NCBI GenBank assembly: GCA_021820025.1
Contig: JAKAEF010000001.1
Location: 1-34,874 of the forward strand
DNA from: a bacterium
GTDB lineage: Bacteria > Patescibacteriota > Microgenomatia > Levybacterales > UBA12049
Reading direction: 5' to 3'
DNA length: 34,874 nt
The translations under genes and the position numbers were made by a program. Positions 9,461 through 31,884 of this stretch are shown here, one piece after another (position 1 is the first letter of the stretch; the number at the start of each line of letters is the position of its first letter). Under the pieces are notes generated by a model, which did no database searches, was not told the origin of the DNA, and was given only the letters and a program-made list of their open reading frames with translations.

Positions 9461-11721
9461 ATATTTGCCACTACTCCAAAAGATTCAATTGTTCCCCCGC
9501 AATATTTTATTATTTTATCACAAGCTTCTTGTAAGCAAGTTTGTACTTCTTCTGGAGATATTGAATATACTCCATCAACATTAAGTAAAATATTTTTTGT
9601 ATGTAATTGAACTGCTGTTCGTTGTGCATCTCTATAATTAAAATCCATATTATATCCGCCATTTTGATCAAAATATGCAATTTCTTTTTCTGTATATGCT
9701 GTTGGTTTTTCATCTCCTAATAAAAGAATTTCTTCCCCGTTTTTTGCAAAGCGAAGAACGGTTGGAAAAGCAATAGTATCTAAATCAAATGCTCCAACAG
9801 AAACTTTGTGTTTCATAACTGTCATATTATATGCATCAACACATGTATTAATGGTATACAAACCTTTACCTAATGCAATTCTTCGCAAAAGCGCTTCAGG
9901 TGATGGTCTTCGTGAATGCCAATCAACTCCCATTTCTTTATATAATTTTCTATAACTTACTACTTCATCAAATTTTCCCAATTCTTCTGTTGTTAAATTT
10001 TGGATTGATGTTAAAAATGCTTGTTTTTCTTTTTCTAATTCTGGATTTGTTTTTTCAATTTGTACTCCTTTAATAACTGCAACTCCAACAGAGATACTTG
10101 GAAATTTTTCAAAAAGATGTTTATCTATAGAAAATATATTTGGGTTATCAAACCTTGTTATTTGTGATTCTTTCGAACTAGCGGTTGCTGTAGGTAAAGC
10201 ACTTACTTCTAAAAATCTATTTTTTACAAAATCTTTATCTAAAGAAAGAATAAGCCATGCTGCTTTTGGACCACTTGTTTTTCCAAGTAAAGAAAGATAA
10301 ATTGCACCAAAAACTTCTCTTCCAGAAATTCCCATTTCTTTTCCCCATTCGTACATATCAAATTGCAATTTTTCTGCATCGGAATAATTGGCTAATTGAT
10401 TTACAACTTTTTGTAAAAATGCTTTTTGTTTTTCTGATAATTCTTTTGCTTTTTCAGGTAATTTTTCTTGGACAACAAATTTATCTTGTTCTGGTGCATA
10501 TTTGTCTACCCAAACTTTTGCGTATGTTGCCCAATTCTCAAGACCCTGTTTTTTTATTTCTTCCTGCATGTTTGGCATTTGTACCCATTGGGCTAAAACA
10601 GAAAAACGAATACTTGGTGGTTTTTGTACTTCTCCAACTTGAGAAAGTTGAAAGGTTCTTGCTAAATCTGCATCTGATTTTCCAAAATATGCATCTGCAC
10701 ATCTCTGATATTCATCGAATAATTGTGGAATAGTATTAGGATTTGATAAATCAAAATTAATTTCACTATTAATTTTTGTTCTTACCATTAAGAATCGCAA
10801 AACTTGTGGAGGTAAAATCTCTAACATATCAGCAGCCGATGCACCAACACCTTTAGATGTAGACATTTTTTGTTTTCCTAAAATAAACCACTCATATGCC
10901 AATGGAAATGGGACAGGATAATTAAATACTCTATCAGAAATTTTTGATGCAACATCATGAGATCCACCTGCTGTCATATGATCTTTTCCTGCTCCTTCAA
11001 CTGTTACACCAATAACTTTCCATTTTGCGGGCCATTCTATTTTCCACGTTAGTTTTCCTACAATTTCTCCATCTCCACTAAATGGAGACATTTTGCCTAT
11101 AAACCCACAGCCTTTGGTAAATTTAACTTTATTCTCTTCACAGGTAAAAGTAATTTGTTCTCCATCCCAATCGGTTACTGTTGTTGTTGAAACTTTTCCA
11201 CAATTTGTGCAGTATGGTTGAAATGGATACCATTTTTCCGGCATTGTTTTTTTATAAATTTCTTCATAAATTTTTTTAATATCATCTGCTTTATCTAATG
11301 CTTCTTTAATTAACGGATTCATTTTTCCGCTTCTATATAAATCTCCTCCCCAAATAATTTCAGGTTCGCTCCCAATAGCATTAAAAACTTTTTTAAAATC
11401 TTCTGCATAATAATGGGCAAAGCTTTTATATCCTTCTTCTGGAGATGGAACTTTAAAAAGTGGCAAACCTAAATATTTTTCAAATTTTTCTTTTGGCAAA
11501 TACACAGGCAATCCATCCATTGGATCCTGGTCTTCAAAAATATAGGTATATTTTGCATTCACACCTATATCTAATAAACATTTATAAATTAAGTCATGAA
11601 TCACCACACCACGCAAACTCCCCACATGAATTTTGCCAGATGGTGTTTTAGCATCATCCACCCATTCCAGTGGTTTATTTCGTTTTTTTATTTCTAGTGC
11701 AATTTGATCTGCCCAAAACAT
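9457..11721 (-). CDS. lysS: class I lysyl-tRNA synthetase fused to a C-terminal B3/4 domain
   Basis: HIGH-type motif KIHVGSLRG. KMSKS-type motif KMSTSKG. The Cys-rich insertion CTNCGK...CEEN..GCG is typical of class I LysRS. Residues ~527-754 match the free-standing B3/4 family pattern (RRPSPEALLRRIALGKGLYTINTCVDAYNMTVMKHKVSVGAFDLD ... FNYRDAQRT). Confidence 0.9.
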   Translation of the reverse strand: MFWADQIALEIKKRNKPLEWVDDAKTPSGKIHVGSLRGVVIHDLIYKCLLDIGVNAKYTYIFEDQDPMDGLPVYLPKEKFEKYLGLPLFKVPSPEEGYKSFAHYYAEDFKKVFNAIGSEPEIIWGGDLYRSGKMNPLIKEALDKADDIKKIYEEIYKKTMPEKWYPFQPYCTNCGKVSTTTVTDWDGEQITFTCEENKVKFTKGCGFIGKMSPFSGDGEIVGKLTWKIEWPAKWKVIGVTVEGAGKDHMTAGGSHDVASKISDRVFNYPVPFPLAYEWFILGKQKMSTSKGVGASAADMLEILPPQVLRFLMVRTKINSEINFDLSNPNTIPQLFDEYQRCADAYFGKSDADLARTFQLSQVGEVQKPPSIRFSVLAQWVQMPNMQEEIKKQGLENWATYAKVWVDKYAPEQDKFVVQEKLPEKAKELSEKQKAFLQKVVNQLANYSDAEKLQFDMYEWGKEMGISGREVFGAIYLSLLGKTSGPKAAWLILSLDKDFVKNRFLEVSALPTATASSKESQITRFDNPNIFSIDKHLFEKFPSISVGVAVIKGVQIEKTNPELEKEKQAFLTSIQNLTTEELGKFDEVVSYRKLYKEMGVDWHSRRPSPEALLRRIALGKGLYTINTCVDAYNMTVMKHKVSVGAFDLDTIAFPTVLRFAKNGEEILLLGDEKPTAYTEKEIAYFDQNGGYNMDFNYRDAQRTAVQLHTKNILLNVDGVYSISPEEVQTCLQEACDKIIKYCGGTIESFGVVANI

Positions 11722-12904: not shown

Positions 12905-14392
12905 TTATCCTTCTACTTGTACTTCAACTGTTCCTAATTGTACTCCGTGTTCTTTTTGCAAACGAGTTAGTAATTCTCGTGCTCTCTCTGGAGTTTGGGC
13001 TAATACTAACACTTTTGCATGAGGAGAGGCAATGACTTGTTCTTGCCCATCTTCATCTTCCCCAACGACTGTTCTTGAAGCAAGAACAAGCACGCCTTCT
13101 TTTGTATCTGGGTTATATACCATATCTGGTCCGATACTTTGTGCAAAATCTTCAAAACTTGCAATACCTCTATTTAGAGTAATATTGGTATTTATCCAGT
13201 GTTTTACTCCTAATTTTCTTGCTGCAAAATCTGCATACGTACTAATAATTGGTCTTGTATTTAATTCCAGTGTTCTTACAATTATTTCACCATCTGGTCT
13301 TCGAATAACAACATAATCAGGTCCTTGAATTCCATGATAGCCATTGATGTCTGCATTGTATCTGGCAGTTGCTCTAATTTGGTCATCAATTAATGCCTGA
13401 ATTGCTGGTTCTGGATAATATCTTCTACTACCAACAAAAGACCCGTTTTCTGTAATTTGTTCAAAATGTCCAAGAATTTCAACACTTCCATCTGCTCGAG
13501 ACACACCATGTGCACTACCTAACACTAATACTTCTCCCAAATTTCTTGCATCTTGTTCAATAATTAAACCTGTTCCATAAGGCGCAAAAGTATCTAGAAA
13601 CCAAGAAGCTTCAATATTTCTTTCTTTTCTTAGCTCAGCAGATTCATCAAAACGTGCATGCATTTCTTTAATTGCTTGTCTAAGCGTTGCAGCTGTTACT
13701 CTCTCAATATGCAAAACTGTATCCCCGCCAGAACCACCTGGTAATTTAACCCAAACGCCATGGGGTAAATTGCCAAACTCTGCAACAAGACCATCAATCG
13801 CGTCTTGTGTAACTTCTCCACTTACTATTCTTCCTGGCATCATATTAATACCAAATTCTGCAGCATGTTCTCGTAAATCTTGTTTGTTATTTGTTAAATC
13901 ACTACTTGGAGTATCTAAAGTTGGCATACCAAGTTGTTCTGCTTGCGCACGTACAGCATCACCAATAATTGTTGGAAGTAAGACAGAAGTTCTGGTATCT
14001 CTTCGCATACTCCCATCATTAACTCGCGCTGCCATTCTTTCCAAAACATCACCATGTGGGAATGGATAAGGATTTGCTAAATCTCCATTTTCAACTCTAT
14101 GTGGCACTTCAATTAATTGACCTGGTTGTAAAATACCAATTTGTTCATAATGCTCTCGTAAACCTCCAAAAAGTTTTGGGGTAATAGCTACTTCTCCAGG
14201 ACCTGCAACAAACAAAGATAAATACCCTAAGTACGCATCACCATACGGTTCTGGAAGAATCGTAAATCTTTCTGGATTAACAAAATTTGCAGCGTGAGTT
14301 GGCACTCGATCAATATGATCTGCGCCATTTCTTTGTCCATTAACCGTTAATGCACCCAATGCGGGTGCTTCTTGTCTTGCTTGCATTGCCAT
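12905..14392 (-). CDS. ATP-grasp family carboxylate-amine ligase with an N-terminal pre-domain, substrate unknown
   Basis: 495 aa. ATP-grasp signatures occur in canonical order: VWVKLPGGSGGDTV (Lys plus Gly-rich loop), LIIEQDA (hinge) and RTLELNTRP (E-x-N Mg site). About 200 aa precede the first motif and about 110 aa follow the last. Composition is K-poor and R-rich. Confidence 0.75.
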   Translation of the reverse strand: MAMQARQEAPALGALTVNGQRNGADHIDRVPTHAANFVNPERFTILPEPYGDAYLGYLSLFVAGPGEVAITPKLFGGLREHYEQIGILQPGQLIEVPHRVENGDLANPYPFPHGDVLERMAARVNDGSMRRDTRTSVLLPTIIGDAVRAQAEQLGMPTLDTPSSDLTNNKQDLREHAAEFGINMMPGRIVSGEVTQDAIDGLVAEFGNLPHGVWVKLPGGSGGDTVLHIERVTAATLRQAIKEMHARFDESAELRKERNIEASWFLDTFAPYGTGLIIEQDARNLGEVLVLGSAHGVSRADGSVEILGHFEQITENGSFVGSRRYYPEPAIQALIDDQIRATARYNADINGYHGIQGPDYVVIRRPDGEIIVRTLELNTRPIISTYADFAARKLGVKHWINTNITLNRGIASFEDFAQSIGPDMVYNPDTKEGVLVLASRTVVGEDEDGQEQVIASPHAKVLVLAQTPERARELLTRLQKEHGVQLGTVEVQVEG

Positions 14393-15451: not shown

Positions 15452-16630
15452 TTAATTTGTCCCAGTTAATTCTAACACTGTTTGGACTGCTGATCTAGAG
15501 TACATTTGTTTTCTTCTTTCTTCATTAAATGGTAAATACATCCACAAAAATGATCTATAAAGAGTTGGTAGTTCGCGTCTTCCATCGTCTACTTTTACGT
15601 TGCCAAACAACGTTTGAAGAGGAAAATCTTCTCTCCCTGTTATTTCTTCATCTAATGGTCTTGGGATAGTTAGCCCGCTTTTTCTAGCATTAATTGGAGC
15701 TCCATTTACTGTATTACATTCTGCAAAAATTACTGGATTTCTATTTCCACAATCATGCTCTACTTGAGCAATTAAATGAATAATTGCTGCTTCCATTGAT
15801 TCATTTCGTGGAACAAGAGACAAAAACTCTGTTAATTCAACAAGCCGCACACTTTCTCCGTTACCAATAGGTAAATCTAATGCTTCAGCCTTTGCAGCAG
15901 CGACAAGATTTCCATTATTATCAGTTATTGCAGACAACCATTCATTTTTTGCTTCTCTTGGCAATTCTCTTTCTGCTTCTAATCTCTGTTGCATTGCTGC
16001 CACATCACCAGTTTGCCAGCCAAATCTAATTCCCCACCAGTATTCCAATTGTTGTTCCAGAGTTTGTCCCTCATCATTTCTAACATCTGCATCTACCATA
16101 TGATGGTACGAGTATTTTGATGCTATGGCACGCTCTGTTCTTGTTACCGAATGTATTGTATCTTTAGCTAACACTTCTGCTGTTTTTGCTGGAATTTCAC
16201 TCGGTGTTATAGGAGTTTGGCGCTGTTCTCCGTTTTGTCCGAAAACGACATAATACAGTTGAGATTCCCCAAGATGAGCAGGAACAGCAACAGCAACTTC
16301 TAACGTAGAACATGCATCGGGACTTGTAGACGACATATTAACAAGTGCTTCTTGTGTTACTAACGCTCGCACCATTGTCCTACCAACTTCAGGATGAGGC
16401 AAAAGTTCTCGTAAACCATGTACGCCATTAACAAGCTCCGATAACTCTGCAGCACCTGCAATAGCATGATCTGGGGTATACATAAGCCTGTCAAAACTAC
16501 GTAGATCAAGTCCCAATGCGCCGGTACTAGTTGCAGCATCAATCCGCCTATCTGCAACCTCCCGCATTTGGGCTTGTAATTGTTCTCTTATTGGAGCTGT
16601 AGATTGTTGTGCTAATTCTTGTTGAACCAT
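15452..16630 (-). CDS. orphan 392-aa protein, possibly with a degenerate GNAT-like core in the C-terminal half
   Basis: The ATG at 16630 is preceded by GAAGGAAGGA-N5 and by a TTGACT-16-TACAAT promoter. Composition is K-poor and R-rich. I recognised no catalytic motif. Residues ~225-345 show a GNAT-like strand/helix order (VIFAECNTVNGAPINARKSGL). Confidence 0.7.
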   Translation of the reverse strand: MVQQELAQQSTAPIREQLQAQMREVADRRIDAATSTGALGLDLRSFDRLMYTPDHAIAGAAELSELVNGVHGLRELLPHPEVGRTMVRALVTQEALVNMSSTSPDACSTLEVAVAVPAHLGESQLYYVVFGQNGEQRQTPITPSEIPAKTAEVLAKDTIHSVTRTERAIASKYSYHHMVDADVRNDEGQTLEQQLEYWWGIRFGWQTGDVAAMQQRLEAERELPREAKNEWLSAITDNNGNLVAAAKAEALDLPIGNGESVRLVELTEFLSLVPRNESMEAAIIHLIAQVEHDCGNRNPVIFAECNTVNGAPINARKSGLTIPRPLDEEITGREDFPLQTLFGNVKVDDGRRELPTLYRSFLWMYLPFNEERRKQMYSRSAVQTVLELTGTN

Positions 16631-16738: not shown

Positions 16739-17386
16739 ATGATCACAGTACCTGAGGCTACACGCAAAGTTATAGAACGTTCACGCTACCTGGCAGAGGC
16801 TATGAGTAAGGGGCTTATTAATTACTCTTCTTTAGCCCGCTATATTAAGCCAGAACTTGAACAAATGCTTGTTAAAAATGTCAGTGAATCATCTATTATT
16901 ATGGCTTTAAAAAGGCTTGAACCTTATTTTCAACCAAAATATAAACATGTTACTGTTTTCCAAAATCCTCCAGAAATGATTGTGAGATCAAATCTAGTTG
17001 AAATAACTGTTGCGAATTCTGAAGAAATGACAAAAAAATTACCTCAAATTATGGCAGTTTACGCGAATCAGCAAAAATACTACTTTACCATTACAGAAGG
17101 AGTATCAGAAACAACTATTATTGCAAGCCATGATTTGTTTGATAAAATCAAAACAATTTTAAATGGAGAAAAAGTAGTTGAAACATATGTTGATCTTTCT
17201 TCTATCACAATTAGACTCCCTAAAGAAGTTTTAGAATCTCCCGGAATTTTTTACTTTTTCTTAAAAAGTCTGGCATGGGAGGGGATAAATATTATAGAAA
17301 TCGTTTCAACCTATTTGGAATTTACCATAATTTTAGAAGATAAAAACGTAAACAAAGCATTTGCAATTCTTAAATCTCTTTTTTAA
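16739..17386 (+). CDS. ACT-domain protein with a helical N-terminus (putative ligand-sensing regulator)
   Basis: The C-terminal PGIFYFFLKSLAWEGINIIEIVSTYLEFTIILEDKNVNKAFAIL is an ACT-like beta-alpha-beta-beta-alpha-beta unit. The gene is divergent from the orphan/HDAC operon. Confidence 0.6.
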   Translation: MITVPEATRKVIERSRYLAEAMSKGLINYSSLARYIKPELEQMLVKNVSESSIIMALKRLEPYFQPKYKHVTVFQNPPEMIVRSNLVEITVANSEEMTKKLPQIMAVYANQQKYYFTITEGVSETTIIASHDLFDKIKTILNGEKVVETYVDLSSITIRLPKEVLESPGIFYFFLKSLAWEGINIIEIVSTYLEFTIILEDKNVNKAFAILKSLF

Positions 17387-20118
17387 ATTTGTTTTTCTTG
17401 CAATTTTTGGTGTTCTTTCATTAAGCAAAAATCAGAAACAATAGTGACATTATGTTCTCTTGCATAATTTTCTGCTTTTGTATTTCTTACTCCTTCTGGT
17501 AACCAAATTGTTTTTATTCCTTTTTTAATTGCCTCTTCAACATGTGGAAATACTTCTTCTGATCTTCTATAAATTGCAACCATATCTACTGACTTTTCAA
17601 TTTCTAATAAATTTTTATATGCTTTTTCTCCTAACACTTCTCCAATTGCTGGATTAACAGGAACAATAGAAAATCCTTTTGATTGTAAATAAATACCAAC
17701 CTTATGACTGTATCTGTCTGGATCCTGAGAAATTCCAACAATTGCAATTGTTTTTGCTTTTTGCAAAACATTTAATTGGATTGCATCATCTAATGGATTA
17801 TTTTGTATATCAAAATGCCATTCTTCTAATTCTATTGGATCAACTCCATATTCTGTTATGTAAGCCAAATGTTCTTCCAAAGCATTTTTGTAATGATCAA
17901 TTATTTTTTTTGCTTTTTCTAAAGAAATTACTTTTTGTTTTTCCATTTTTTCAATTATTTCTATTGCTAAATGATATCTACTTGTTTTATTTCTCATATG
18001 CATATCAAAAGGTGTTGTTGTCCCACCCAATTCTAAATATCCATGAACAGAAAATCTTTGAGGATTTTTTATGTGGAAAAATATTGACTCCAAATCTTCA
18101 GGATATCCATGATAATTTACAATAACAGGTTTATCGGAAGTAAAATATTTTTCTGCATTTGGAATCTGATTTTTTTGTTGATCTCGTCCTGACAAGCGAA
18201 CAATATTTACAAAGCGAATCTTAATTTCCGGTGCTACAACTTTTACCATTTCTAAAGCAGCCATTGCTTCCTTTGTTACATAGTCCCCAACTCCCGCAAT
18301 AACAATGTCAGGGTTTTCATCACTTGCAAATTCCCAAATTAAAAGTCCGTCTTCCAAAGATTTTTGTGCTTGTTGTAACGTAAGCCATCTTGGTTCTATA
18401 GTTTTACCAGCAACAATTGCATTAATACCATTTGTTGATGCTAATGTTTCGTCTAAAACTGCAAGCATACTATTGTCATCAACAGGGAAATAAACTTTTA
18501 TTTTGTCATCATGTTTTTCTAAAAGTGAACTGACAAATGATGGATTCTGGTGCGTAAATCCATTGTGTTCTTGTCTCCATAAAACTGAAGAAAGCATGTA
18601 ATTTATAGATGCATATGGTCCCCGCCATGAAAGAGTTCTGGCAACTTTTAAAAACTTTTCATATTGATGCGTCATGCTGGAAAAAATTTGTGCAAATGCT
18701 TCATAAGTTGTAAATACAGCATGTCGTCCTGTTAAAATATATCCTTGGGCTAACCCATGTAAATTAGTTTCTGATAACATTTCCATAACTCTTCCATCTT
18801 GTGTCATATCTTTATCGTCTTTACTAATTGGCCAAACAAATGCTCTGCTTGTCTCTTTAAAAACAGTATCCAGTCTGTTGGAGTATGTTTCGTCAGGAGA
18901 CATAAGACGAAAATTATTTTTATTTAATGCAAAAACTTGTTGCAAATATTCACCAGCTTTTTTCATGCTGTTAGATCCCAATTTCCCGGGAACTTCAAAT
19001 TTTGTTTCTAAATTTTCTGTTTTTGGAAGAATTAATTTTTTAAAAAAATTTTTACTGTATGCATGAGGATTATTTCCAATTCTCAACTTTTCTTCAGGAA
19101 GAATATTAAAAATTTCTTTTGAAAATCCTTTATCTTTAGAAAAAACATCATTAAACTTATAAGAAGTTAGCCAATCTTCAATTGCCTCTAACTCATATTC
19201 ATCTTTTCTTGCATTTGGAGCAACAACTTGATGTGCTAAAATATTTCCTTCAATTTTTTTCTTATTTAATTCTTTTATTCCAGTCCATCCTTTTGCTGTC
19301 TGTAAAATAATCATTGGAAATTTAGGAGAAACAATTTTTTTGCCTGAACGCGCATCTTTTTGAATTTTTTTAATTTTTGCTAAACAAGTATCTAATGTTT
19401 TTACCATGTCTTCATAAATATGTTCTCCTGTAACAAAAAATGGTTCATATCCATATCCTTCAAAAAGATCTGATAACTCTTTATTAGACATGCGACCAAA
19501 GATTGTTGGACCAGAAATTTTATAGCCATTCACGTGCAATATAGGCAAAACTGCACCATTTATTGCAGGATCTATTAATTTATTTATATGCCAGCTAGAA
19601 GCAATAGGTCCAGTTTCTGCTTCTCCATCTCCAATCATACAAACAGCTAATAAATCTGGATTATCTAAAACAGCTCCATATGCAGTTCCTAAGGAGTAAC
19701 CTAACTCTCCACCTTCTAAAATTAATCCGGGCGCCTCAGGATTACTGTGACTTGATACACCATATGGCCAACTAAAAATTTTTGAAACCCAGGCAATCCC
19801 TTTTTCATCAAGAGTTGCTTCTTTGTAGTATTTCTCTAGTGTTCCTTCTAAGAATAAATTTGCCTGAAGTGCAGGAAATCCATGACCAGGTCCTAAAACA
19901 AACATGGTAGAAACTTCATGTTTTTTTACAAAATATTGTAAATTTGCATAAACAAAATTTATCCCTGGACATGTTCCCCAATGTCCAAACAAGCGTTGTT
20001 TAATATCTTTGCTAGATAGTTTTTCAGATAATAAATAATTATCTTTTAAATAAATTTGTGTTACTGTCAAATAATTTGCAGCACGAACATACGCTTTAAT
20101 TGCAGAAATATCATTCAT
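17383..20118 (-). CDS. xfp: xylulose-5-P/fructose-6-P phosphoketolase fused to a C-terminal CoA-binding (YccU/CoA_binding_2-like) domain
   Basis: Phosphoketolase motifs GHWGTCPG, EGGELGYSL and GDGEAETGP (ThDP site) are present. Length is 911 aa. The last ~139 aa (KTIAIVGISQDPDRYSHKVGIYLQSKGFSIVPVNP...VDMVAIYRRSE...IKTIWLPEG) match the small Rossmann CoA-binding family. Confidence 0.88.
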   Translation of the reverse strand: MNDISAIKAYVRAANYLTVTQIYLKDNYLLSEKLSSKDIKQRLFGHWGTCPGINFVYANLQYFVKKHEVSTMFVLGPGHGFPALQANLFLEGTLEKYYKEATLDEKGIAWVSKIFSWPYGVSSHSNPEAPGLILEGGELGYSLGTAYGAVLDNPDLLAVCMIGDGEAETGPIASSWHINKLIDPAINGAVLPILHVNGYKISGPTIFGRMSNKELSDLFEGYGYEPFFVTGEHIYEDMVKTLDTCLAKIKKIQKDARSGKKIVSPKFPMIILQTAKGWTGIKELNKKKIEGNILAHQVVAPNARKDEYELEAIEDWLTSYKFNDVFSKDKGFSKEIFNILPEEKLRIGNNPHAYSKNFFKKLILPKTENLETKFEVPGKLGSNSMKKAGEYLQQVFALNKNNFRLMSPDETYSNRLDTVFKETSRAFVWPISKDDKDMTQDGRVMEMLSETNLHGLAQGYILTGRHAVFTTYEAFAQIFSSMTHQYEKFLKVARTLSWRGPYASINYMLSSVLWRQEHNGFTHQNPSFVSSLLEKHDDKIKVYFPVDDNSMLAVLDETLASTNGINAIVAGKTIEPRWLTLQQAQKSLEDGLLIWEFASDENPDIVIAGVGDYVTKEAMAALEMVKVVAPEIKIRFVNIVRLSGRDQQKNQIPNAEKYFTSDKPVIVNYHGYPEDLESIFFHIKNPQRFSVHGYLELGGTTTPFDMHMRNKTSRYHLAIEIIEKMEKQKVISLEKAKKIIDHYKNALEEHLAYITEYGVDPIELEEWHFDIQNNPLDDAIQLNVLQKAKTIAIVGISQDPDRYSHKVGIYLQSKGFSIVPVNPAIGEVLGEKAYKNLLEIEKSVDMVAIYRRSEEVFPHVEEAIKKGIKTIWLPEGVRNTKAENYAREHNVTIVSDFCLMKEHQKLQEKQI

Positions 20119-20130
20119 AATTTATTTTCT

Positions 20131-21885
20131 TTAATAATCCTCAAGAGTAGAGGTATCACCTTCAGGAAGACCTAATTCCCTAGATTTTAATAAGCGGCGC
20201 ATAATTTTGCCCGAGCGGGTTTTAGGAAGTTTATCTATAAATTCTATTTCCCGTGGATATGCATGGCCTGCCAAATGTTGTTTTACATACGCCATAATTC
20301 TCTTTTTTGTTTCTTCATTTTTTTCAACGCCTGGTTTTACAACAACAAAGGCTTTAATAATTTCTCCACGTAACTCATCTGGTTTTCCAATAACTCCTGC
20401 TTCTATAACATCTTCATGTTCGACAAGTGCACTTTCAACTTCAAACGGACCTACACGTTCTCCAGATGTTTTTATAACATCATCTGCTCGTCCAACAAAC
20501 CAAAAATACCCATCTTTATCTTTAAATGCTTTATCTCCAGACAAATACCATCCATTTCTAAAGTATGAATCAAATTTTTCTTTATTTCCCCAAATTTGTT
20601 TCATTAAAGAATAAATTGTTTCCGGCTTTAGTGCTAAATGTCCTTCTTCTCCAACAGGTACTTCTTTCCCATCTTCATCAATTACTGCTGCGATAACACC
20701 TGGGAGTGGCTTTCCCATACTGCCTGGCCTAACATCCATAACAGAATAATTTGTTACGGTTATTGATCCTTGTTCTGTTTGCCACCACGTATCATGGAAT
20801 GGTAATCCAAATGCTTCTAACCCCCACCAAATTGCTTCAGGATTTAATGGTTCACCAACACTGGCCAAAAATCGAAGATTTGATAAGTTATATTCCTTTG
20901 GAGAAACAGGAGATCCCATAAGCATTCTAATTGCAGTTGGGGCTGTATACCAAACAGTTACTTGGTAATCTTGCAAAACTTTGTACCAATTTTCGGGAGA
21001 AAATCTTCCTTCAAAAATTACAGAAGTTGCTCCCAAACCAAACGGACCTAATGCTCCATAGACAACTCCTGTTACCCAGCCTAAATCCGCTGTACACCAA
21101 TAAATATCATCTTCGTGTACATCTAAAACAAATTTTGTTGTTACCATTGCCTGTACAATATCTCCATGTGCATGCACAACACCCTTTGGTTTTCCTGTTG
21201 TTCCAGAGGTATAGAGCATGTAAGAAAGATCTTCTTTTTGCATATGAGCAATTGCAAAATCTGCAGAAGCTTTTTCCATTTCATGTTTATAATAAATAAG
21301 ATTTTCTCCTTTGGGTTGATCAACAGATCCTCTTTCTACAATAATTACTTTTTCAAGTGCAGGTAAATCTTTCCAGATTTTTTGAATTCTTGGAAAAAGA
21401 GTTGCATTGGTAACAACAACCTTTGCTCCACTATCTAATAAGCGATCCATTAATGCCATTTCCATAAATGCGGAGAATAATGTTCCTGCAATTGCACCAA
21501 GTTTTAAGATGCCAAAAAAAACAACTAATCGCTCAGGAATTGTTGGTAAGAAAATAAAAACTCTATCTCCTTTTTGTACTCCATGCAAATCTAAAACATT
21601 AGCAAATTTATTTGTTAAATCTTTTAATTGGCCATAGGTATATGTTTCTTTTTCACCAGTTGCACTTTCAAATAAAAGTGCATTTTTAGAAGCACTTTTT
21701 CCGATAGCATGTCTGTCAATTGCAATATAAGAAGCATTTAAAGTTCCGTCTTCAAAAAAATCTAAATATTCTTTTTCTGCTTTTTTCCATGTAAACTCTT
21801 TATAGGTTTTTTCGTAATCAGAAAGGTTTGGTTTTTTAACAAATTTTTTGGGGTCTTTGTGAATTATATTTGCACCTGTATTCAT
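20131..21885 (-). CDS. acs: AMP-forming acetyl-CoA synthetase / acyl-CoA synthetase
   Basis: The AMP-binding motif is YTSGTTGKPKGV, and the A10 motif is LPKTRSGKIMRR. I prefer the start at ATG 21885. The listed TTG start at 21933 lies inside a TTGACA -35 box. Confidence 0.88.
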   Translation of the reverse strand: MNTGANIIHKDPKKFVKKPNLSDYEKTYKEFTWKKAEKEYLDFFEDGTLNASYIAIDRHAIGKSASKNALLFESATGEKETYTYGQLKDLTNKFANVLDLHGVQKGDRVFIFLPTIPERLVVFFGILKLGAIAGTLFSAFMEMALMDRLLDSGAKVVVTNATLFPRIQKIWKDLPALEKVIIVERGSVDQPKGENLIYYKHEMEKASADFAIAHMQKEDLSYMLYTSGTTGKPKGVVHAHGDIVQAMVTTKFVLDVHEDDIYWCTADLGWVTGVVYGALGPFGLGATSVIFEGRFSPENWYKVLQDYQVTVWYTAPTAIRMLMGSPVSPKEYNLSNLRFLASVGEPLNPEAIWWGLEAFGLPFHDTWWQTEQGSITVTNYSVMDVRPGSMGKPLPGVIAAVIDEDGKEVPVGEEGHLALKPETIYSLMKQIWGNKEKFDSYFRNGWYLSGDKAFKDKDGYFWFVGRADDVIKTSGERVGPFEVESALVEHEDVIEAGVIGKPDELRGEIIKAFVVVKPGVEKNEETKKRIMAYVKQHLAGHAYPREIEFIDKLPKTRSGKIMRRLLKSRELGLPEGDTSTLEDY

Positions 21886-21904
21886 AATTTGGTAGATCGT
21901 GGTT

Positions 21905-21933
21905 ATAGTAACAAGGTTTCTTTTATCTGTCAA
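21905..21933 (-). promoter_or_regulatory. promoter for the acs-xfp transcription unit
   Basis: The minus strand reads TTGACA (21933-21928), 17 nt, then TACTAT (21910-21905). The ATG lies 19 nt further on, at 21885. Confidence 0.45.
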
Positions 21934-21998: not shown

Positions 21999-22529
21999 TT
22001 ATAACTGTCTAACTAATGTAGATACACCAGGAACATATTGAGATCTAACCTGAAATCCTCGATGCAACAATGCTTGTTCTGATACTGCATTTTCTGGTTG
22101 CGCCTTTATTGTTGAATATCCTGCTTCTTTTGCAGCAAAACAAAGCCGCTCTACTAATTGACTCATTATACCTATTTGTCTAAATTTAGGAGCAATATAA
22201 ATATCTTCTAATACTGCTTCTGTTCTTGGCTCTCCAGCGATTGCACCTGAATAAAATCCATATCCTACAATATTTCCTCTGTTATCTCTGACAAGTTCTA
22301 TTAAATAATCTCTCTGATCTTCTATAAAACTACCAATTAATGCAGCTGTAGCATCTGTTTCTTGATGTAAAGTTGCTTTCCTACGAAAACGTTCACCCGC
22401 TGCTCGAGCATGTTCTCCTGCCCAATTAGTTCTCAATCTACCAATTTCCGTTACTACTCTTTGCGTTTCTGGATCTATATCTCTAGATTGTAACTGTGAA
22501 TAATCAATTATTCCGTATCTTTCGCGCAT
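21999..22529 (-). CDS. GNAT-family N-acetyltransferase (K-poor/R-rich)
   Basis: The GNAT core is NIVGYGFYSG...VLEDIYIAPKFRQIGIMSQLVERL...AKEAGYSTIKA...A...LHRGF. The first ATG is at 22529; the listed 22550 start is TTG. This is the last gene after coaBC and pantoate kinase. Confidence 0.8.
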   Translation of the reverse strand: MRERYGIIDYSQLQSRDIDPETQRVVTEIGRLRTNWAGEHARAAGERFRRKATLHQETDATAALIGSFIEDQRDYLIELVRDNRGNIVGYGFYSGAIAGEPRTEAVLEDIYIAPKFRQIGIMSQLVERLCFAAKEAGYSTIKAQPENAVSEQALLHRGFQVRSQYVPGVSTLVRQL

Positions 22530-22543
22530 ATTTGTATTATATA

Positions 22544-23350
22544 TTAACAAATTAAAAATTGTTGAGACCCTGCAAATGGTATATTACTAAACACTCCATT
22601 TCCAAGCATTATCATAGAAGCAACTCCGCCTTTATTTTCTATTTCTTGAATTGTTTGTATAACTTCTTGATCTTGCAATAACCCACTAGTCGTAGCAAAT
22701 TCTTTTGAAATAGTAATGACATTTTCTAATGTTATTTTTTTCTCTTTATAAAGAGCATCAATTTTTTCAATTGCTGTTTTTCCAGCAACATCAATTTTTT
22801 CTTTTATTACTGGATTTTGAATAACAGATTTTGTTTCAAGTGTACTAAAAAATCGACAATAAATTGGAATATTTGCTATTGGTAAATGTATAACTTTAAA
22901 CAGATAACTAGGATCTTTTTTCAGTAAAAATCCTCCAAAATATTCATTTGTTATATCTCCCAGCCCTGTTCCGTTTTCTACTTCTGCAATATGAGAAAGC
23001 TTTGCCAACTCTATTTTTCCTTTTTGTAAATTAAGTAAATCATTTATTGCATATGCTGTTGCAAGTGTTGCTGCCCCGCTTAATCCAAATCCTCCGCCAA
23101 GTGGTAAATCAGAAATAATTGAGACTTCTAATGGTATGTCTGTTAACTTTTTTATAACAGATAAAACGGGACCAATATGTATTTCTTTTTTGTTTAAAAA
23201 AATTTTTGTATTTGCAGCTTTTGCAACTGTTGCCGTTGCTCCCTTAGATATTGTAAATCCAACACCCGTTGAACCTGTTGTTTCAGGTGTTTCTCCTTTA
23301 TGAATTCTAAAAATACAAGAAATATTTCCGGGAGCAAATGCTGTTGTCAT
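22544..23350 (-). CDS. GHMP-family kinase, archaeal-type pantoate kinase candidate
   Basis: The GHMP phosphate-binding loop is DLPLGGGFGLSGAATLA. The HIAEVENGTGLGDI motif fits my memory of the archaeal pantoate kinase family. Its start overlaps the coaBC stop (ATGA at 23347-23350). Confidence 0.6.
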   Translation of the reverse strand: MTTAFAPGNISCIFRIHKGETPETTGSTGVGFTISKGATATVAKAANTKIFLNKKEIHIGPVLSVIKKLTDIPLEVSIISDLPLGGGFGLSGAATLATAYAINDLLNLQKGKIELAKLSHIAEVENGTGLGDITNEYFGGFLLKKDPSYLFKVIHLPIANIPIYCRFFSTLETKSVIQNPVIKEKIDVAGKTAIEKIDALYKEKKITLENVITISKEFATTSGLLQDQEVIQTIQEIENKGGVASMIMLGNGVFSNIPFAGSQQFLIC

Positions 23351-24543
23351 AATACATTTTCAATTATTTTTTGTGCAATTTGTTGTTTTGTATTTAGAGG
23401 AATATGTATCTCTTCTCCTGTATTTTTTAATATATATACTTCATTGGTATCAACTAAAAATCCTGTTTTTTCTCCAACTACATTTGCAACAATTGCAAAA
23501 ATATTTGTTTGTTTTAATCGTTGTTTTGATTTTATTAGTAAATTTTGAACTGTTCCTGTTTCTGCTTTAAATGCAATTACCTTTACATTTTTATTCCATA
23601 ACATAATTTTTGATAGTATTTTTTCTTTAGGAATTAATTTTAAAATCATCTCTTTGTCTGAAGAAATTTTTCCATTAAATTTTTCTACTGAAAAATCAGC
23701 AACAGCTGCAGCATGAAAAACAATGTCAGTATTTTTAACTTCTTTTTGTAAAATTTCTTCTAATTCGTCTGCTGTTTCAAAAATAAGTTGCTTTATATTG
23801 TATTTTGGTTCTACAGAATTTTTAGCACGAATTATTGTTACATCTGCTCCTTGTAAAAAACATTCTTCCGCCAATGCTACTCCCATTTTCCCAGAAGATT
23901 TATTAGAAATAAATCGAACATCATCTATATATTCTTTTGTTCCGCCAGATGTTACTACAATTTTTTTCCCTTTTAATTTAGTTGATTTAGAAACTATAGA
24001 AGTAATCTCATTTATAATTACATCTAAATTTGCCAATCTTCCTTGCCCTTCATATCCGCATGCCAACATTCCAGAATCGGGATTAATAATAATATATCCA
24101 AGCGTTTTTAATTTCTTTATATTCTCTTGTGTAGCAGGATGATGCCACATATGCACATTCATGGAGGGGCAAACAATAATAGGGCAGGTTGCTGCCAACA
24201 CTGTTGTCGTTAAGTAATCATCCGCAATTCCATTTGCCAATTTTGCAATTATATTTGCAGTTGCTGGAGCAATAACAATTGCTTGAGCATTTCCAGCAAT
24301 TTGAATGTGTTCAACTTTTCTCTCTTGAAGAATCTTTTTTGTATTAATCGGTTTGTCAAACAAATTAGCAAAAACTTCTATCTTATTTTCTTTTTTAATT
24401 TTTTCAGGAGAAATCATTTCAGATGCTCCAGAAGTCATAATAACAACAACATTAATATTTTTTTGTTGCAGTTTTGTAATTATTTCCTGAGCTTTTACAA
24501 CAGCTATTCCTCCAGATAATCCTAGTATTACTTGCTGTTTCAT
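23347..24543 (-). CDS. coaBC: bifunctional phosphopantothenoylcysteine decarboxylase / phosphopantothenate-cysteine ligase
   Basis: The N-terminal flavoprotein part has GLSGGIAVVKA and PATANIIAKLANGIADDYLTT. The C-terminal CoaB part has VTSGGTKEYIDDVRFISNKSSGKMG. Confidence 0.93.
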   Translation of the reverse strand: MKQQVILGLSGGIAVVKAQEIITKLQQKNINVVVIMTSGASEMISPEKIKKENKIEVFANLFDKPINTKKILQERKVEHIQIAGNAQAIVIAPATANIIAKLANGIADDYLTTTVLAATCPIIVCPSMNVHMWHHPATQENIKKLKTLGYIIINPDSGMLACGYEGQGRLANLDVIINEITSIVSKSTKLKGKKIVVTSGGTKEYIDDVRFISNKSSGKMGVALAEECFLQGADVTIIRAKNSVEPKYNIKQLIFETADELEEILQKEVKNTDIVFHAAAVADFSVEKFNGKISSDKEMILKLIPKEKILSKIMLWNKNVKVIAFKAETGTVQNLLIKSKQRLKQTNIFAIVANVVGEKTGFLVDTNEVYILKNTGEEIHIPLNTKQQIAQKIIENVL

Positions 24544-24552
24544 AATAGGGGT

Positions 24553-24582
24553 ATTGTATCAATTTGTAAGTATAAGAGGCAA
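24553..24582 (-). promoter_or_regulatory. extended -10 promoter for the coaBC / pantoate kinase / GNAT operon
   Basis: The minus strand reads TTGCCT (24582-24577), 18 nt, then TGA-TACAAT (-10 at 24558-24553). The ATG at 24543 is 9 nt after the -10 box. Confidence 0.45.
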
Positions 24583-24583
24583 A

Positions 24584-25582
24584 CTAGGAGAGATTTCCAA
24601 GCTCTGCTGTTGCAATGGCAAAAAGAAATAACGGGATAAATCGTAAACCCTCAACTGCTATATATCTGCTCTGCCATTGAGGTAAAAATTTATTATTAAA
24701 CGAATATAAAGAACTACATTTATACATATAGGCAAGTGGAGTAAAAAAACAAGAAAGCATGGTACGTTTTATTTTTCCATATTCTTTTTGAGAATTCATA
24801 AAAGTTGCAAAATTTAAACTTACAATTTCTGATTTTTTTTGTTTGTAATAATCTAATGCTTGGAGAATTAAAAATTCCATAAGACCGTTTGGCGTATTTT
24901 TCCTTTTTCTCATTGCATCAAGAGACCAACTATTTCTTCCATAAATTGGGACCATGGATAAATATCCTAATATTGTACTATCTTGAATAGCTAGAATAAA
25001 TTCACAATCACTATCATATAATGCTGGAATTCTTCCTAAAGACATAGAAAATCCTCTTTCTCTATTTCCTTTTTGCTGTAACCATTCACAAGAAATTTCT
25101 TCGATTTGTGATAAATAATTCTGAGGAATATTTGCACGGGAAAAAATTTGACATGTTATTCCTAGTTTCTGAACATATTTTTCTGCACGTCTAACTTTTT
25201 TTTTAAGGTATTGTTTATTAAATTGTGACAAATGCATAATTGCTTCTTCTCCTACCTTTACAGTTTTATAATGTAGTTTTTTAAGTATCAATCTATTGTT
25301 AGCATGCAGTCCTATGAAACATGTTTTAAGGTTTGCACCTTTTGTAAAATAAATAAATTCTTTTAACAATTTTTCTGTTTCTTCTATTGGTCCAATAGGA
25401 TCGGCACTTACTAATGCAACATTTTTCCAAATTCTATAAGAAAGAAACGAACGCCCTGTTGATGAGAAAAAATACTTTCTGTTATCTTGCAAAGAAAAAT
25501 ACGATAAAGAATCGTATCCATATTTTTTTAATAATATTCTAACTGCAGAGAGAGTATGAGGACTCGTTTGTAAAGGTTTCAT
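24584..25582 (-). CDS. stand-alone DUF2156 protein (C-terminal aminoacyl-tRNA transferase domain of MprF/LysX-type aminoacyl-phosphatidylglycerol synthases)
   Basis: Family pattern seen: SLSYFSLQDNRKYFFSSTGRSFLSYRIWKNVALVSADPIGP, SLDAMRKRKNTPNGLMEFLI, SLNFA and YSFNNKFLPQWQSRYIA. No N-terminal transmembrane flippase region is present. Confidence 0.8.
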   Translation of the reverse strand: MKPLQTSPHTLSAVRILLKKYGYDSLSYFSLQDNRKYFFSSTGRSFLSYRIWKNVALVSADPIGPIEETEKLLKEFIYFTKGANLKTCFIGLHANNRLILKKLHYKTVKVGEEAIMHLSQFNKQYLKKKVRRAEKYVQKLGITCQIFSRANIPQNYLSQIEEISCEWLQQKGNRERGFSMSLGRIPALYDSDCEFILAIQDSTILGYLSMVPIYGRNSWSLDAMRKRKNTPNGLMEFLILQALDYYKQKKSEIVSLNFATFMNSQKEYGKIKRTMLSCFFTPLAYMYKCSSLYSFNNKFLPQWQSRYIAVEGLRFIPLFLFAIATAELGNLS

Positions 25583-25598
25583 ACAGGGGTTAACAGAC

Positions 25599-26075
25599 TT
25601 ATTCTACGGAGACAACAGTATATGCAACTTTACCAGCTGGTGCTTCTACTTCTATTTTCTCTCCAATTGCTTTACCCATTAATGCTTTACCAAGAGGAGA
25701 CTGGTCAGAAATTTTTTGTTGTGCAGGGTCTGCTTCCCATTCGCCAACTACAGTATATACTTGTTTTTTGCCACCAACATGTAAAGTTACAGTTGCCCCA
25801 AGTATTACTGTTTTTTTACCACCAGATTTTCCTGGTTTTTCTTCAATTATTTCTACCTGTTTGAGCATTTCTTCAAGCTCATCAATTCTTCCATCAATAA
25901 AAGATAATTCTTCTCGTGCAGCTTGATATTCTGCATTTTCAGAAAGATCACCTTGATTTCGTGCTTGAGAAACTGTCTCCAAAACTTCTGGTCTTCGGAC
26001 TTTTGCTAATTGGTCATACTCTTTTTTAAGAGTTTCCAAACCTTCTTTTGTTAAGTATATTTTTTTATCTGGCAT
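25599..26075 (-). CDS. greA: transcription elongation factor GreA
   Basis: ATG 26075 gives MPDKKIYLTKEGLETLKKEYDQL...RPEV...ARNQGDLSENAEYQAAREE, the canonical GreA N-terminus. The listed 26123 start is TTG and lies in the leader. Confidence 0.93.
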   Translation of the reverse strand: MPDKKIYLTKEGLETLKKEYDQLAKVRRPEVLETVSQARNQGDLSENAEYQAAREELSFIDGRIDELEEMLKQVEIIEEKPGKSGGKKTVILGATVTLHVGGKKQVYTVVGEWEADPAQQKISDQSPLGKALMGKAIGEKIEVEAPAGKVAYTVVSVE

Positions 26076-26091
26076 AGTTTTTAAAGAAAAT

Positions 26092-26160
26092 CCCTCACAT
26101 ATTCTGTAGAGGGTTTTTATCAACTTGTTGCATGGTATTAAAAGTTACTACTTTTGTCAA
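26092..26160 (-). promoter_or_regulatory. greA leader: promoter-like element followed by a terminator-like hairpin
   Basis: The minus strand reads TTGACA (26160-26155), 17 nt, then TACCAT (26137-26132). Next come AAAAA, CCCTC, a 12-nt loop, GAGGG (26113-26092) and ATTTTCTTT. The greA ATG is at 26075. Confidence 0.4.
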
Positions 26161-26175
26161 TAACCTCTAGTACTA

Positions 26176-27168
26176 TTAGCCAACAAACCTATTTAATATT
26201 CCTGCTGCCTTTTTTTTAGCTTCCTTCGTTACCTCTACCTCTACTAATCCTTTTTTTGGCTGACCATAAAAAATCTTAAATCCTTCTGGCAAAACTAAAA
26301 TTAATGGTAATACCAATAAATCTTCTTCTCCTGCCACTTCTAAGATATAAGTAGTATCGCCAGAAATAATTTCTACAATTTTTAATAATACTCTCCATAC
26401 ATCAATTGTCAAGGATCCTGGAGGGTTTTTAACAGAAAAAATTTTTTCGTTTCCTTTAAATCCAAAATCATTTTTTGTTTTATGGGTTTGTTGCCTTTCG
26501 ACAACATAATCTATAACAGAAAGTTTTGGAAAAATATGTGCATCTAAAAAACGCTTTGTGGTTACATCTCCAACCGTAATAATTTTTTCACTTGGAATTT
26601 TACTAATAGCTGCAAAGCCATTTGTATGCAAAGTTCCAAATGGCTTTTGTAAATCTTCACGTACTGGAATGGGAAGTTGTAAATTATGGCTAAACCAAGT
26701 TGGATTTCCATACATATCCATAAAACCTGTTCTTATATGTGTTGATGCCAAAGGCAAATCAGCATTGCCTTTAACAAGAGGCATAGAAATAATTGGCAAT
26801 GAAGAAAAACCACGTTCTGCTCTTTTTTTATTAACTACTTCTGCACCAAATTGTGTATTGTCTGTAACAATTAATGCCTCAACCGGATATGTATTATCTG
26901 CAACAGGTCCTTCAACAGTATTAATTGGGACAATAATCGATCTATCAAAGAAATTGTTGTTTTTTAAGAAAGCCTCTAAGGTTTTTTTTCGTTCTGCAAA
27001 AGGAGGAATTTGCAAATCATTTTTATAGTTTTTTATATAGATGTCAGAGGTTAAACCAATAAGTACATGCTCGCTTACTGAAAATGCAAAAGTTAGAAAT
27101 GCTTCATGACCTTTATGCAAAGGACCAAATGTTCCACCGATTGCAACTAACTTATATTGATATGCCAT
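26176..27168 (-). CDS. fusion of archaeal-type phosphopantetheine adenylyltransferase and DUF359 (GTP-dependent dephospho-CoA kinase family)
   Basis: The N-terminal half has the cytidylyltransferase motif GGTFGPLHKGHEAFL. The C-terminal half has ITVGDVTT, VIDYVVERQ, VAGEEDLLVLPLIL and FYGQPKKGLVEVEV, which are typical of DUF359. Confidence 0.78.
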   Translation of the reverse strand: MAYQYKLVAIGGTFGPLHKGHEAFLTFAFSVSEHVLIGLTSDIYIKNYKNDLQIPPFAERKKTLEAFLKNNNFFDRSIIVPINTVEGPVADNTYPVEALIVTDNTQFGAEVVNKKRAERGFSSLPIISMPLVKGNADLPLASTHIRTGFMDMYGNPTWFSHNLQLPIPVREDLQKPFGTLHTNGFAAISKIPSEKIITVGDVTTKRFLDAHIFPKLSVIDYVVERQQTHKTKNDFGFKGNEKIFSVKNPPGSLTIDVWRVLLKIVEIISGDTTYILEVAGEEDLLVLPLILVLPEGFKIFYGQPKKGLVEVEVTKEAKKKAAGILNRFVG

Positions 27169-31398: not shown

Positions 31399-31884
31399 AT
31401 GAACCAAGTAATTTCCCCAGAAAATGCCCAACAAATTATTAACGACCTTCATAAAAACGAGAAAACAGTAGTAATTACCGGAGGTTGTTTTGATATTTTG
31501 CATCCTGGACATTTTGCCCTTTTTGAAAACGCAAAAAAAGCAGGAGATACATTATTTGTATTATTGGAAAGCGACGAAAAATTAACCCAGATTAAAGGTG
31601 CCAGCAGGCCTATTCATTCGCAAGAAGAAAGAGCAACAATGCTTAAAGCAATTAAATATATAGACTACATTATTCCCCTTCCCCTTTTTACTAAAAATGA
31701 ACAATATGATGATTTGTTACAAATGTTACATCCAGATATTATTGCAACAACAGAGAATGACACAAATTTAAAACATAAACAAAGACAGGCAGCACTTATT
31801 CACGCAAAAGTAATAGAAGTCACAAAATATATTCCCCATAAATCAACCAGCAATTTAGCCAATATTTTGTCTAAAGAAAACTAA
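31399..31884 (+). CDS. cytidylyltransferase-family nucleotidyltransferase (RfaE domain II / HldE-C-like)
   Basis: Motifs are GGCFDILHPGH, GDTLFVLLESDEKLTQIKGASRPI and a conserved EER...L...IDYII. Confidence 0.7.
   Translation: MNQVISPENAQQIINDLHKNEKTVVITGGCFDILHPGHFALFENAKKAGDTLFVLLESDEKLTQIKGASRPIHSQEERATMLKAIKYIDYIIPLPLFTKNEQYDDLLQMLHPDIIATTENDTNLKHKQRQAALIHAKVIEVTKYIPHKSTSNLANILSKEN

Follow-up and report, generated by a model that had tools for sequence, protein, structure and literature searches.

Coenzyme A (CoA) is synthesized in the archaeon Thermococcus kodakarensis by pantoate kinase (PoK; TK2141), phosphopantothenate synthetase (PPS; TK1686), the phosphopantothenoylcysteine synthetase and decarboxylase PPCS-PPCDC (TK0517), phosphopantetheine adenylyltransferase (PPAT; TK2128), and a GTP-dependent dephospho-CoA kinase (DPCK; TK1697) (Shimosaka et al., 2019; PMC6650551). 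In the same study, the residues D48, D67, and D125 of TK1697 were mutated, PPAT-arCOG04076 fusions of uncultured archaea served as a clue to the archaeal DPCK, and homologues of this kinase were retrieved from archaea only (PMC6650551). Among bacteria, PoK and PPS have been described in sponge-associated Poribacteria (Entoporibacteria), which keep bacterial PPAT and DPCK enzymes, a limited part of the archaeal pathway being represented in them (Thomes and Lescure, 2020; PMC7883664). Ketol-acid reductoisomerase (KARI) substitutes for ketopantoate reductase (KPR) in Corynebacterium glutamicum and Thermotoga maritima, and the same substitution has been proposed for the Poribacteria that use PoK and PPS (PMC7883664). 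Here, we analyze a stretch of 34,874 nucleotides (the window; contig JAKAEF010000001.1 of assembly GCA_021820025.1, designated C27 in our analysis) from a bacterium of the Candidate Phyla Radiation (CPR; Patescibacteriota, Levybacterales) that carries genes for a PoK, for the bifunctional phosphopantothenoylcysteine synthetase/decarboxylase CoaBC, and for a fusion of PPAT and DPCK. Judged from the sequences of these genes and of others located elsewhere in the genome, it is very probable that this bacterium of about 1 Mb genome size encodes a nearly complete CoA pathway drawn from the archaeal enzyme set.

Archaeal-type CoA biosynthetic genes in the window

An earlier note, which was made from the sequence of the window without database searches, had described a coaBC gene overlapping that of a GHMP kinase of the archaeal PoK type and, 3 kb away, a gene for an archaeal-type PPAT fused to DUF359, all of them in a bacterial context. 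Our list of open reading frames (ORFs) and our profile scans place every gene named there where it had been reported, and the description holds in each of these respects. The TGA stop codon of coaBC (23347-24543, minus strand) and the ATG start codon of the PoK gene (22544-23350, minus strand) share the nucleotides ATGA, the minus strand reading ...GTA TTA TGA CAA... at this position. The coaBC-PoK locus is separated by 3 kb from the gene for the PPAT-DPCK fusion (26176-27168, minus strand); between them lie a gene for a stand-alone MprF C-terminal domain (mprFC) and greA, a marker of bacterial context that stands outside the CoA pathway. Given the strong profile matches to specific families detailed below, the family assignments are not due to chance.

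The product of coaBC reaches 378 bits with TIGR00521 (cut-off 220), and matches to PF02441 (residues 4-172) and PF04127 (residues 190-372) indicate that the predicted protein belongs to the CoaBC family and possesses a flavoprotein decarboxylase as well as a DFP ligase domain. Encoded next to it is a GHMP kinase of 268 amino acids (PF00288, 47 bits), whose residues 3-255 match the NCBIfam model of pantoate kinase best (NF040725; 163 bits, E 7e-48). Mevalonate kinase, the second-ranking GHMP model, yielded 35 bits, a score that the models of homoserine, galacto-, and shikimate kinases did not exceed either. Its best match in the Protein Data Bank (PDB) is PoK of T. kodakarensis (TkPoK; 6jbc), aligned over its full length (3-257; E 1e-14), followed by a partial match to a homoserine kinase (E 1.8e-6) and by likewise partial matches to mevalonate kinases (about 1e-6 or worse). 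Residues S91, E123, D132, and T173 of the window protein align to S104, E134, D143, and T186 of TkPoK; we take Ser104, Glu134, and Asp143 to be catalytic and Thr186, like Arg155, to be a substrate residue, roles that we use as a lead only. The corresponding protein of a sister metagenome-assembled genome (MAG) is 81% identical and bears the PGAP name 'pantoate kinase'.

Relatives of the window PoK were retrieved with an alignment as the query, since the single protein as query returned none. Inspection of 80 related loci by tblastn revealed PPS in 70 of them, mostly as the immediate neighbor of PoK, and CoaBC in 37. With the family relationships outlined above, the window PoK would phosphorylate pantoate to 4-phosphopantoate in an ATP-dependent reaction.

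The 330-amino-acid fusion protein matches the archaeal PPAT model NF001985 over residues 4-157 (26698-27159, minus strand; 128 bits, cut-off 104), and the best PDB match of this domain is the PPAT of Archaeoglobus fulgidus (3do8; E 1e-13). Its HxGH motif reads H18-K-G-H21, and the bacterial CoaD model TIGR01510 gave no match among the hits for the window fusion protein. By these features, the predicted domain is of the archaeal/eukaryotic type and not a bacterial CoaD. Residues 164-327 (26188-26679, minus strand) constitute the DUF359 domain of the arCOG04076 DPCK family (PF04019; 105 bits, cut-off 25). Its best PDB match is the DPCK of T. kodakarensis (8jvc; E 6e-16), and D201, D220, and D283 of the fusion align with the mutagenized residues D48, D67, and D125 of TK1697. 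The fusion probably adenylylates 4'-phosphopantetheine and then phosphorylates dephospho-CoA with GTP as the donor. All of its 120 best database relatives (120/120) carry both domains, and the named ones come from Levybacteria, Parcubacteria, or Patescibacteria. PGAP labels the fusion only as 'pantetheine-phosphate adenylyltransferase', so that the kinase step looks absent in metabolic reconstructions of CPR bacteria.

A phosphopantothenate synthetase gene outside the window

No PPS gene is present within the window, as had been noted before with the suggestion that it may lie elsewhere in the genome, and this is where we found it. Six-frame profile searches of the own genome of the bacterium (1.0 Mb, 132 contigs, 86% complete) returned a single match to PF02006, at C70:7-465 (minus strand; 206 bits, cut-off 26). 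The surrounding ORF (C70:1-654) runs off the contig; it attains 304 bits with NF010324 (cut-off 227) and, in this truncated copy, 281 bits with NF041123 (cut-off 300). The gene upstream, panB (TIGR00222; 266 bits, cut-off 208), overlaps it by 4 nucleotides. A second assembly of the same organism contains, on a contig of 10.6 kb, the gene for an identical, full-length PPS (P0241, 246 amino acids), which matches T. kodakarensis PPS (PDB 3wdk; E 1e-68) and the PPS structure 4mb0 (E 1e-66). We thus regard the C70 gene, which scores above curated cut-offs, as coding for a predicted canonical PPS.

The genomic surroundings of these genes were inspected in the same bin and in relatives. A PPS that is 87% identical is encoded, again together with panB, on a 40.9 kb contig of the sister MAG GCA_036392095.1. 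On C70 and on this contig, panB-PPS is flanked by pdxS/pdxT and by genes for a TlyA-like methyltransferase and a P-type ATPase, and the 40.9 kb contig additionally possesses smpB, spoIID, and a gene for a penicillin-binding protein (PBP) around it; the 10.6 kb contig has the same neighbors of panB-PPS up to smpB. Since panB-PPS stands beside the bacterial smpB and PBP genes on the longer contigs, PPS sits in bacterial DNA and is not stray archaeal DNA. A second contig of the sister MAG (DASVYQ010000068.1; L038) shows the order PPAT_DPCK-greA-mprFC-coaBC-PoK-GNAT-ACS (ACS, acetyl-CoA synthetase), which is collinear with the window at 81-97% amino acid identity. By tetranucleotide composition, the window contig fits best of all contigs in the bin, and C70 shows nothing unusual for its short length; its GC content is slightly higher (36.5% vs 33.9%).

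Missing bacterial isozymes and the supply of precursors

The earlier note had also asked whether the genome encodes a complete pathway of the bacterial type; none was found. In the own genome, the best matches to the families of PanC (PF02569) and CoaE (PF01121) reached 10 bits each, and searches for CoaX (PF03309), CoaA (TIGR00554), and PanD (PF02261) yielded nothing. A scan of the same genome for the HxGH motif of bacterial CoaD, followed by NCBIfam searches, recovered only an RfaE-domain-II-like protein (31399-31884 of the window) and NadD. The isozyme family models were also run on 14 control genomes, where they gave matches in the expected bacteria.

For the steps that precede PanB in the pathway, a gene cluster on contig C38 (C38:20105-28185) comprises ilvB (744 bits), ilvC (TIGR00465; 340 bits, cut-off 226), an ilvN-aminotransferase fusion, and genes that are threonine-dehydratase-like (ilvA-like), ilvD-like, and RidA-like. 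The ilvBN-ilvC-ilvD genes, as annotated from their sequences, can supply 2-oxoisovalerate for PanB, and IlvC most plausibly represents the candidate ketopantoate reductase by analogy with the KARI substitution mentioned above. Such a branched-chain amino acid cluster is unusual for a CPR genome of 1 Mb. Within it, the small-subunit (ACT) domain of acetolactate synthase is apparently fused to a class I aminotransferase in an ORF of 559 amino acids (C38:21822-23501).

In the pathway that we propose, IlvBN, IlvC, and IlvD would form 2-oxoisovalerate, which PanB would convert to ketopantoate and a reductase, most plausibly IlvC, to pantoate. PoK would then phosphorylate pantoate, PPS would ligate the product with beta-alanine to 4'-phosphopantothenate, and CoaBC would add cysteine and decarboxylate the resulting compound. 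The PPAT-DPCK fusion would complete the synthesis by adenylylation of 4'-phosphopantetheine and by phosphorylation of dephospho-CoA, probably with GTP. The source of beta-alanine is the one step without a candidate gene.

Distribution across Patescibacteria

We assessed the distribution of these enzymes in a sample of about 391-401 evenly drawn Patescibacteria species genomes. A close PoK was found in the own genome only, PPS in two genomes (the own genome and G072), CoaBC above the cut-off in seven (in the own class, only in the own genome), and bacterial CoaE in 23. DUF359 occurred in nine genomes, seven of the 24 of the own class and two of the 367 elsewhere, and every match lay in a frame of about 330 amino acids that aligned over the whole PPAT-DPCK fusion. 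Since DUF359 is always fused and is concentrated in the own class, the fusion appears to provide a recurring back end of two steps, from 4'-phosphopantetheine to CoA, across this CPR class, with the front end being exceptional. Weak PoK matches in G200 and G072 proved to be mevalonate-pathway kinases and a homoserine kinase by sequence and not PoK.

The genome G072 (L011, L014, L027), which has a size of 2.1 Mb and is assigned to the same phylum, encodes PPS (235 bits), CoaBC, and a bacterial CoaE; no PoK was found in it, and its only GHMP match resembles homoserine kinase by sequence. This organism may run a different hybrid CoA route.

Gene order and origin of the front end

PoK relatives were recovered at 80 named genome loci with identities of 43-54%, except for L038 with 81%. 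PanB-CoaBC-PoK-PPS is the gene order in Woesearchaeota/Nanoarchaeia and in MAGs auto-labelled "Methanosarcinales", CoaBC-PoK-PPS that in Levybacteria-like CPR, CoaBC-PoK that in one Saccharimonadales MAG, and PoK-PPS that in Poribacteria, Lentisphaeria, Latescibacterota, and Methylomirabilia. The order PPAT_DPCK-greA-coaBC-PoK-ACS was encountered in L042, from a MAG mislabelled "Gammaproteobacteria", which matches the window order at 44-71% identity; coaBC-PoK-ACS thus recurs in both L038 and L042. In many MAGs (L040, L042, L043, L049, L052-L056, L102, and others), the record titles 'uncultured Methanosarcinales archaeon' and 'uncultured Gammaproteobacteria bacterium' disagree with the genes present and with the placement in the tree: the 'Methanosarcinales' entries interleave with Woesearchaeota/Nanoarchaeia, and L042 is collinear with the CPR window, including greA.

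In the PoK tree, the Poribacteria-type bacteria form one clade (support 100), Levybacteria and Saccharimonadales nest with DPANN (95), the window protein pairs with that of L038 (100) within the unresolved base, and TkPoK forms a very long branch. In the CoaBC tree, the PoK-linked CPR proteins group together (88), with the window sister to L042 (93); this group is sister to DPANN, and the two together (98) are set apart from most other Patescibacteria CoaBC proteins. G106, a genome of the same family, has at the corresponding place the backbone RfaE2-like - orf472 - solute-binding protein - NTase - greA - ACS - CoA_binding, in which PPAT_DPCK, mprFC, coaBC, PoK, GNAT, and phosphoketolase genes are lacking at those sites; its own fusion (35% identity) is encoded 2.3 kb away. 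The simplest reading of these data is that a front-end operon of the DPANN type entered CPR and, in the lineage of the window, was split into coaBC-PoK and panB-PPS and inserted into a conserved bacterial backbone; loss of these genes in G106 is the alternative. Since PoK and PPS are widely distributed in archaea, we infer that the transfer went from archaea to CPR.

Two further genes accompany the front end in DPANN loci. A gene for a HAD-phosphatase-like protein of about 219 amino acids is found with PoK/PPS in 35 of them (L039-L111 range), and a gene for a deoxyhypusine-synthase-like protein of about 306 amino acids precedes panB in L041 and is found in another 12 loci. Considered as candidates for KPR, neither of them is one, and no convincing homologue was found in the own genome.

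Alternative explanations

The proposal that the archaeal enzyme set of this bacterium makes CoA has several points against it, some of which concern the kinase. The window PoK stays below the NCBIfam equivalog cut-offs (163 vs 380 bits for NF040725; 74 vs 500 for NF041122), and the C-terminus of the fusion reaches 93 bits versus a cut-off of 300 with NF041125, a Thermococcales-specific model of the GTP-dependent DPCK. On account of these scores, we classify both proteins as divergent members of their families, PoK by its sequence being one of the DPANN/bacterial PoK subfamily. Lys144 of the window protein aligns to TkPoK Arg155, presumably a pantoate-binding residue. In a GHMP tree with three outgroup kinases (a ThrB-like protein from G072 and two mevalonate-pathway kinases from G200), the PoK group including TkPoK stood apart from these at 70/74, the branches between families had lengths of 3-9 substitutions per site, and an approximately unbiased (AU) test did not reject a placement of the window PoK with the outgroups (p 0.36). 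The expectation of the earlier note that the kinase would separate from other GHMP subfamilies is thus supported by profile scores and gene linkage, whereas the weak tree did not settle it; since the tree is indecisive, we base the identity of PoK on the former two. The low scores, the exchange of Arg155 to Lys, the weak tree, and the circumstance that salvage by means of the PPAT-DPCK fusion only appears to prevail among the relatives in the class would all be compatible with a GHMP kinase that acts on another substrate (e.g., host-derived pantothenate or pantetheine) in a hybrid or salvage route. We consider such a role quite improbable, given the distance between the PoK profile score and that of any other GHMP family and the full-length match to the TkPoK structure. 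In addition, Lys144 is invariant in an alignment of 20 members of the subfamily, which takes in the published PoK orthologues of Poribacteria (L101 = PCPOR2b; PMC7883664). The genome also has a gene for PPS, an enzyme for which 4-phosphopantoate is the sole substrate known, and PPS occurs together with PoK in 70 of the 80 related loci; a PanC that would make pantothenate was not found.

Other points concern the completeness of the route. At 86% completeness in 132 contigs, the absences of the bacterial isozymes are provisional. A search of the own genome for an ApbA-type KPR gave sub-threshold Rossmann matches only, the weak candidates being ProC, a UDP-glucose dehydrogenase-like protein, a Gnd fragment, glutamate dehydrogenase, and an oxidase-like protein; for beta-alanine formation, neither the PanD search nor a crude motif scan for group II pyridoxal phosphate (PLP) decarboxylases revealed anything plausible in this genome. 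The missing dedicated KPR and beta-alanine source, the generally auxotrophic, episymbiotic life style of CPR bacteria, and the occurrence of any CoA gene in 2-6% of the sampled phylum might be taken to mean that the front end is incomplete and non-functional for de novo synthesis, the host supplying pantoate, beta-alanine, or CoA precursors and the genes converting scavenged intermediates. We hold this to be unlikely, if deserving of some weight: the presence of panB and of the ilv cluster with ilvC, and the intact, translationally coupled genes with 81-87% identity in the sister genome, point to a working pathway at least from 2-oxoisovalerate on, and the import of beta-alanine would be compatible with our proposal and would not refute it. 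That the archaeal-type genes reflect contamination or a chimeric bin, with DPANN DNA binned into a CPR genome, could be suspected from the identity of about 50% between PoK and Woesearchaeota proteins and from the short length and slightly elevated GC content of C70. This explanation is hardly credible and effectively refuted, because the 34.9 kb contig of best tetranucleotide fit carries PoK, coaBC, and PPAT-DPCK alongside greA and further bacterial genes, contigs of 10.6 and 40.9 kb join panB-PPS to smpB, spoIID, and PBP genes, and the arrangement recurs in L038 and L042. The suggestion in the earlier note that a nearby putative ATP-grasp enzyme serves as a non-homologous ligase for phosphopantoate and beta-alanine has nothing but proximity in its favor. 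With a canonical PPS encoded in the genome and in its relatives, and with the ORF at 12905-14392 lacking a Pfam/NCBIfam match and being paired with an M20 deacylase and not with CoA genes, we give it practically no chance. As to the origin of the front end, the basal polytomy of the PoK tree means that the direction and number of transfers between DPANN and CPR are not settled by this tree.

Neighboring genes and other features of the window

The mprFC gene between the two CoA loci (24584-25582, minus strand; PF09924, 201 bits) is probably unrelated to CoA synthesis; at this position it is present in L038 and not in L042 and G106. Its MprF C-terminal domain, an aminoacyl-phosphatidylglycerol synthase, comes without the membrane flippase part. 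The adjacent greA gene (25599-26123, minus strand; NF001263, 176 bits, cut-off 145) is collinear and 67-97% identical in the relatives L038, L042, and L122.

Downstream of PoK, profile scans identified three genes for neighbors that use CoA, all on the minus strand. They encode a GNAT acetyltransferase (21999-22550), ACS (20131-21933), and a phosphoketolase with a fused CoA_binding_2 domain (17383-20118); the TTG called as the start codon of the first overlaps the stop codon of PoK. In G106 (L122:6555-6929), the CoA-binding part only is encoded, apparently as a stand-alone protein and directly after ACS; given this arrangement, the fusion or insertion of the phosphoketolase seems specific to the lineage of the window. 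A scan of the window for promoters and terminators found 26 promoter-like sites versus 37 in shuffled sequence, and we therefore claim no transcription units.

A class I (archaeal-type) lysyl-tRNA synthetase (9457-11721, minus strand; PF01921, 317 bits) bears a C-terminal B3/4 domain (PF03483, 81 bits), which is known from the beta subunit of phenylalanyl-tRNA synthetase. Three ORFs had no Pfam/NCBIfam match at the thresholds used: 12905-14392 (minus strand, 495 amino acids), 15452-16630 (minus strand, 392 amino acids), and 16739-17386 (plus strand, 215 amino acids). The first of them adjoins a gene for an M20 ArgE/DapE-type deacylase, the second one for an HDAC-type deacetylase.

Implications and comparison with known systems

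All enzymes discussed here belong to known families, and the novelty is taxonomic and evolutionary, with no new enzyme being involved. To the published cases, the window adds a bacterium whose last two steps are likewise of the archaeal type, with both enzymes joined in a fusion that recurs in the class, and in whose genome the bacterial isozymes were not found. In evolutionary terms, the PPAT-DPCK fusion would represent a recurring salvage back end of this CPR class, and the front end (panB, coaBC, PoK, PPS) would be related to the PanB-CoaBC-PoK-PPS operon of DPANN. We are evenly divided over the more far-reaching view that the lineage formed by the window organism, the sister MAG, and the organism of L042 is a CoA prototroph save for beta-alanine in an almost wholly CoA-auxotrophic phylum, assembled by joining two cross-domain modules, the salvage back end of PPAT and GTP-dependent DPCK and a front end exchanged with DPANN.

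If this view is correct, the 'archaeal' DPCK family would serve bacteria of this CPR class as a regular enzyme, and the window organism would be the first bacterium known to us with every step from pantoate to CoA of the archaeal type. The PoK/PPS reaction order and the DUF359 kinase have been treated as markers that tell archaeal from bacterial CoA synthesis, the Poribacteria with their bacterial PPAT and DPCK being the single exception published for bacteria, and a bacterial host with archaeal-type enzymes at all of these steps weakens such markers. DPANN archaea are the other radiation of ultra-small episymbionts and, as far as known, share the habitats of CPR bacteria; the locus would provide a concrete case of module exchange between the two. 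It would also define a CPR lineage with possibly lower demands on its host, and beta-alanine may be the sole CoA precursor that must be provided, a point of relevance for the design of cultivation media. In the open-access full-text literature, we found no paper in which pantoate kinase is treated together with Patescibacteria, nor one that links phosphopantothenate to both DPANN and CPR, and the top-ranked open-access results contained no relevant paper on DUF359 or dephospho-CoA kinase in connection with CPR.

From pantoate onwards, all steps to CoA involve the same enzyme families as in T. kodakarensis; the PPS proteins share about 55% identity, and the Asp triad of DPCK is conserved. In contrast, the genes belong to a bacterium, a single polypeptide combines PPAT with DPCK, and the window PoK is very divergent from TkPoK (long branch, 58 bits); neither an ApbA-type KPR nor a PLP-type aspartate decarboxylase was found in the own genome, with IlvC being the candidate reductase. 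The PPAT-arCOG04076 fusions of uncultured archaea agree with the window protein in the order of their domains and in the two successive activities predicted for them; here, the fusion is found in Patescibacteria. Poribacteria and the window organism have both swapped PanC and PanK for archaeal PoK and PPS, the PoK proteins being of the same subfamily, and both do so without a classical KPR. However, PPAT and DPCK are of the archaeal type as well in the window organism, in whose genome bacterial CoaD and CoaE were not found, and PoK is encoded with coaBC and PPS with panB, whereas PoK and PPS are adjacent in Poribacteria.

The nearest relatives of the front end are those of the DPANN operon and of Levybacteria-like CPR, with identities of 44-54% for PoK, 40-54% for CoaBC, 52-60% for PPS, and 45-53% for PanB, and with coaBC directly upstream of PoK in both. 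Different from the DPANN operon, the lineage of the window splits these genes into coaBC-PoK and panB-PPS at two chromosomal sites, and it places coaBC-PoK beside the PPAT-DPCK fusion, greA, and acetyl-CoA synthetase.

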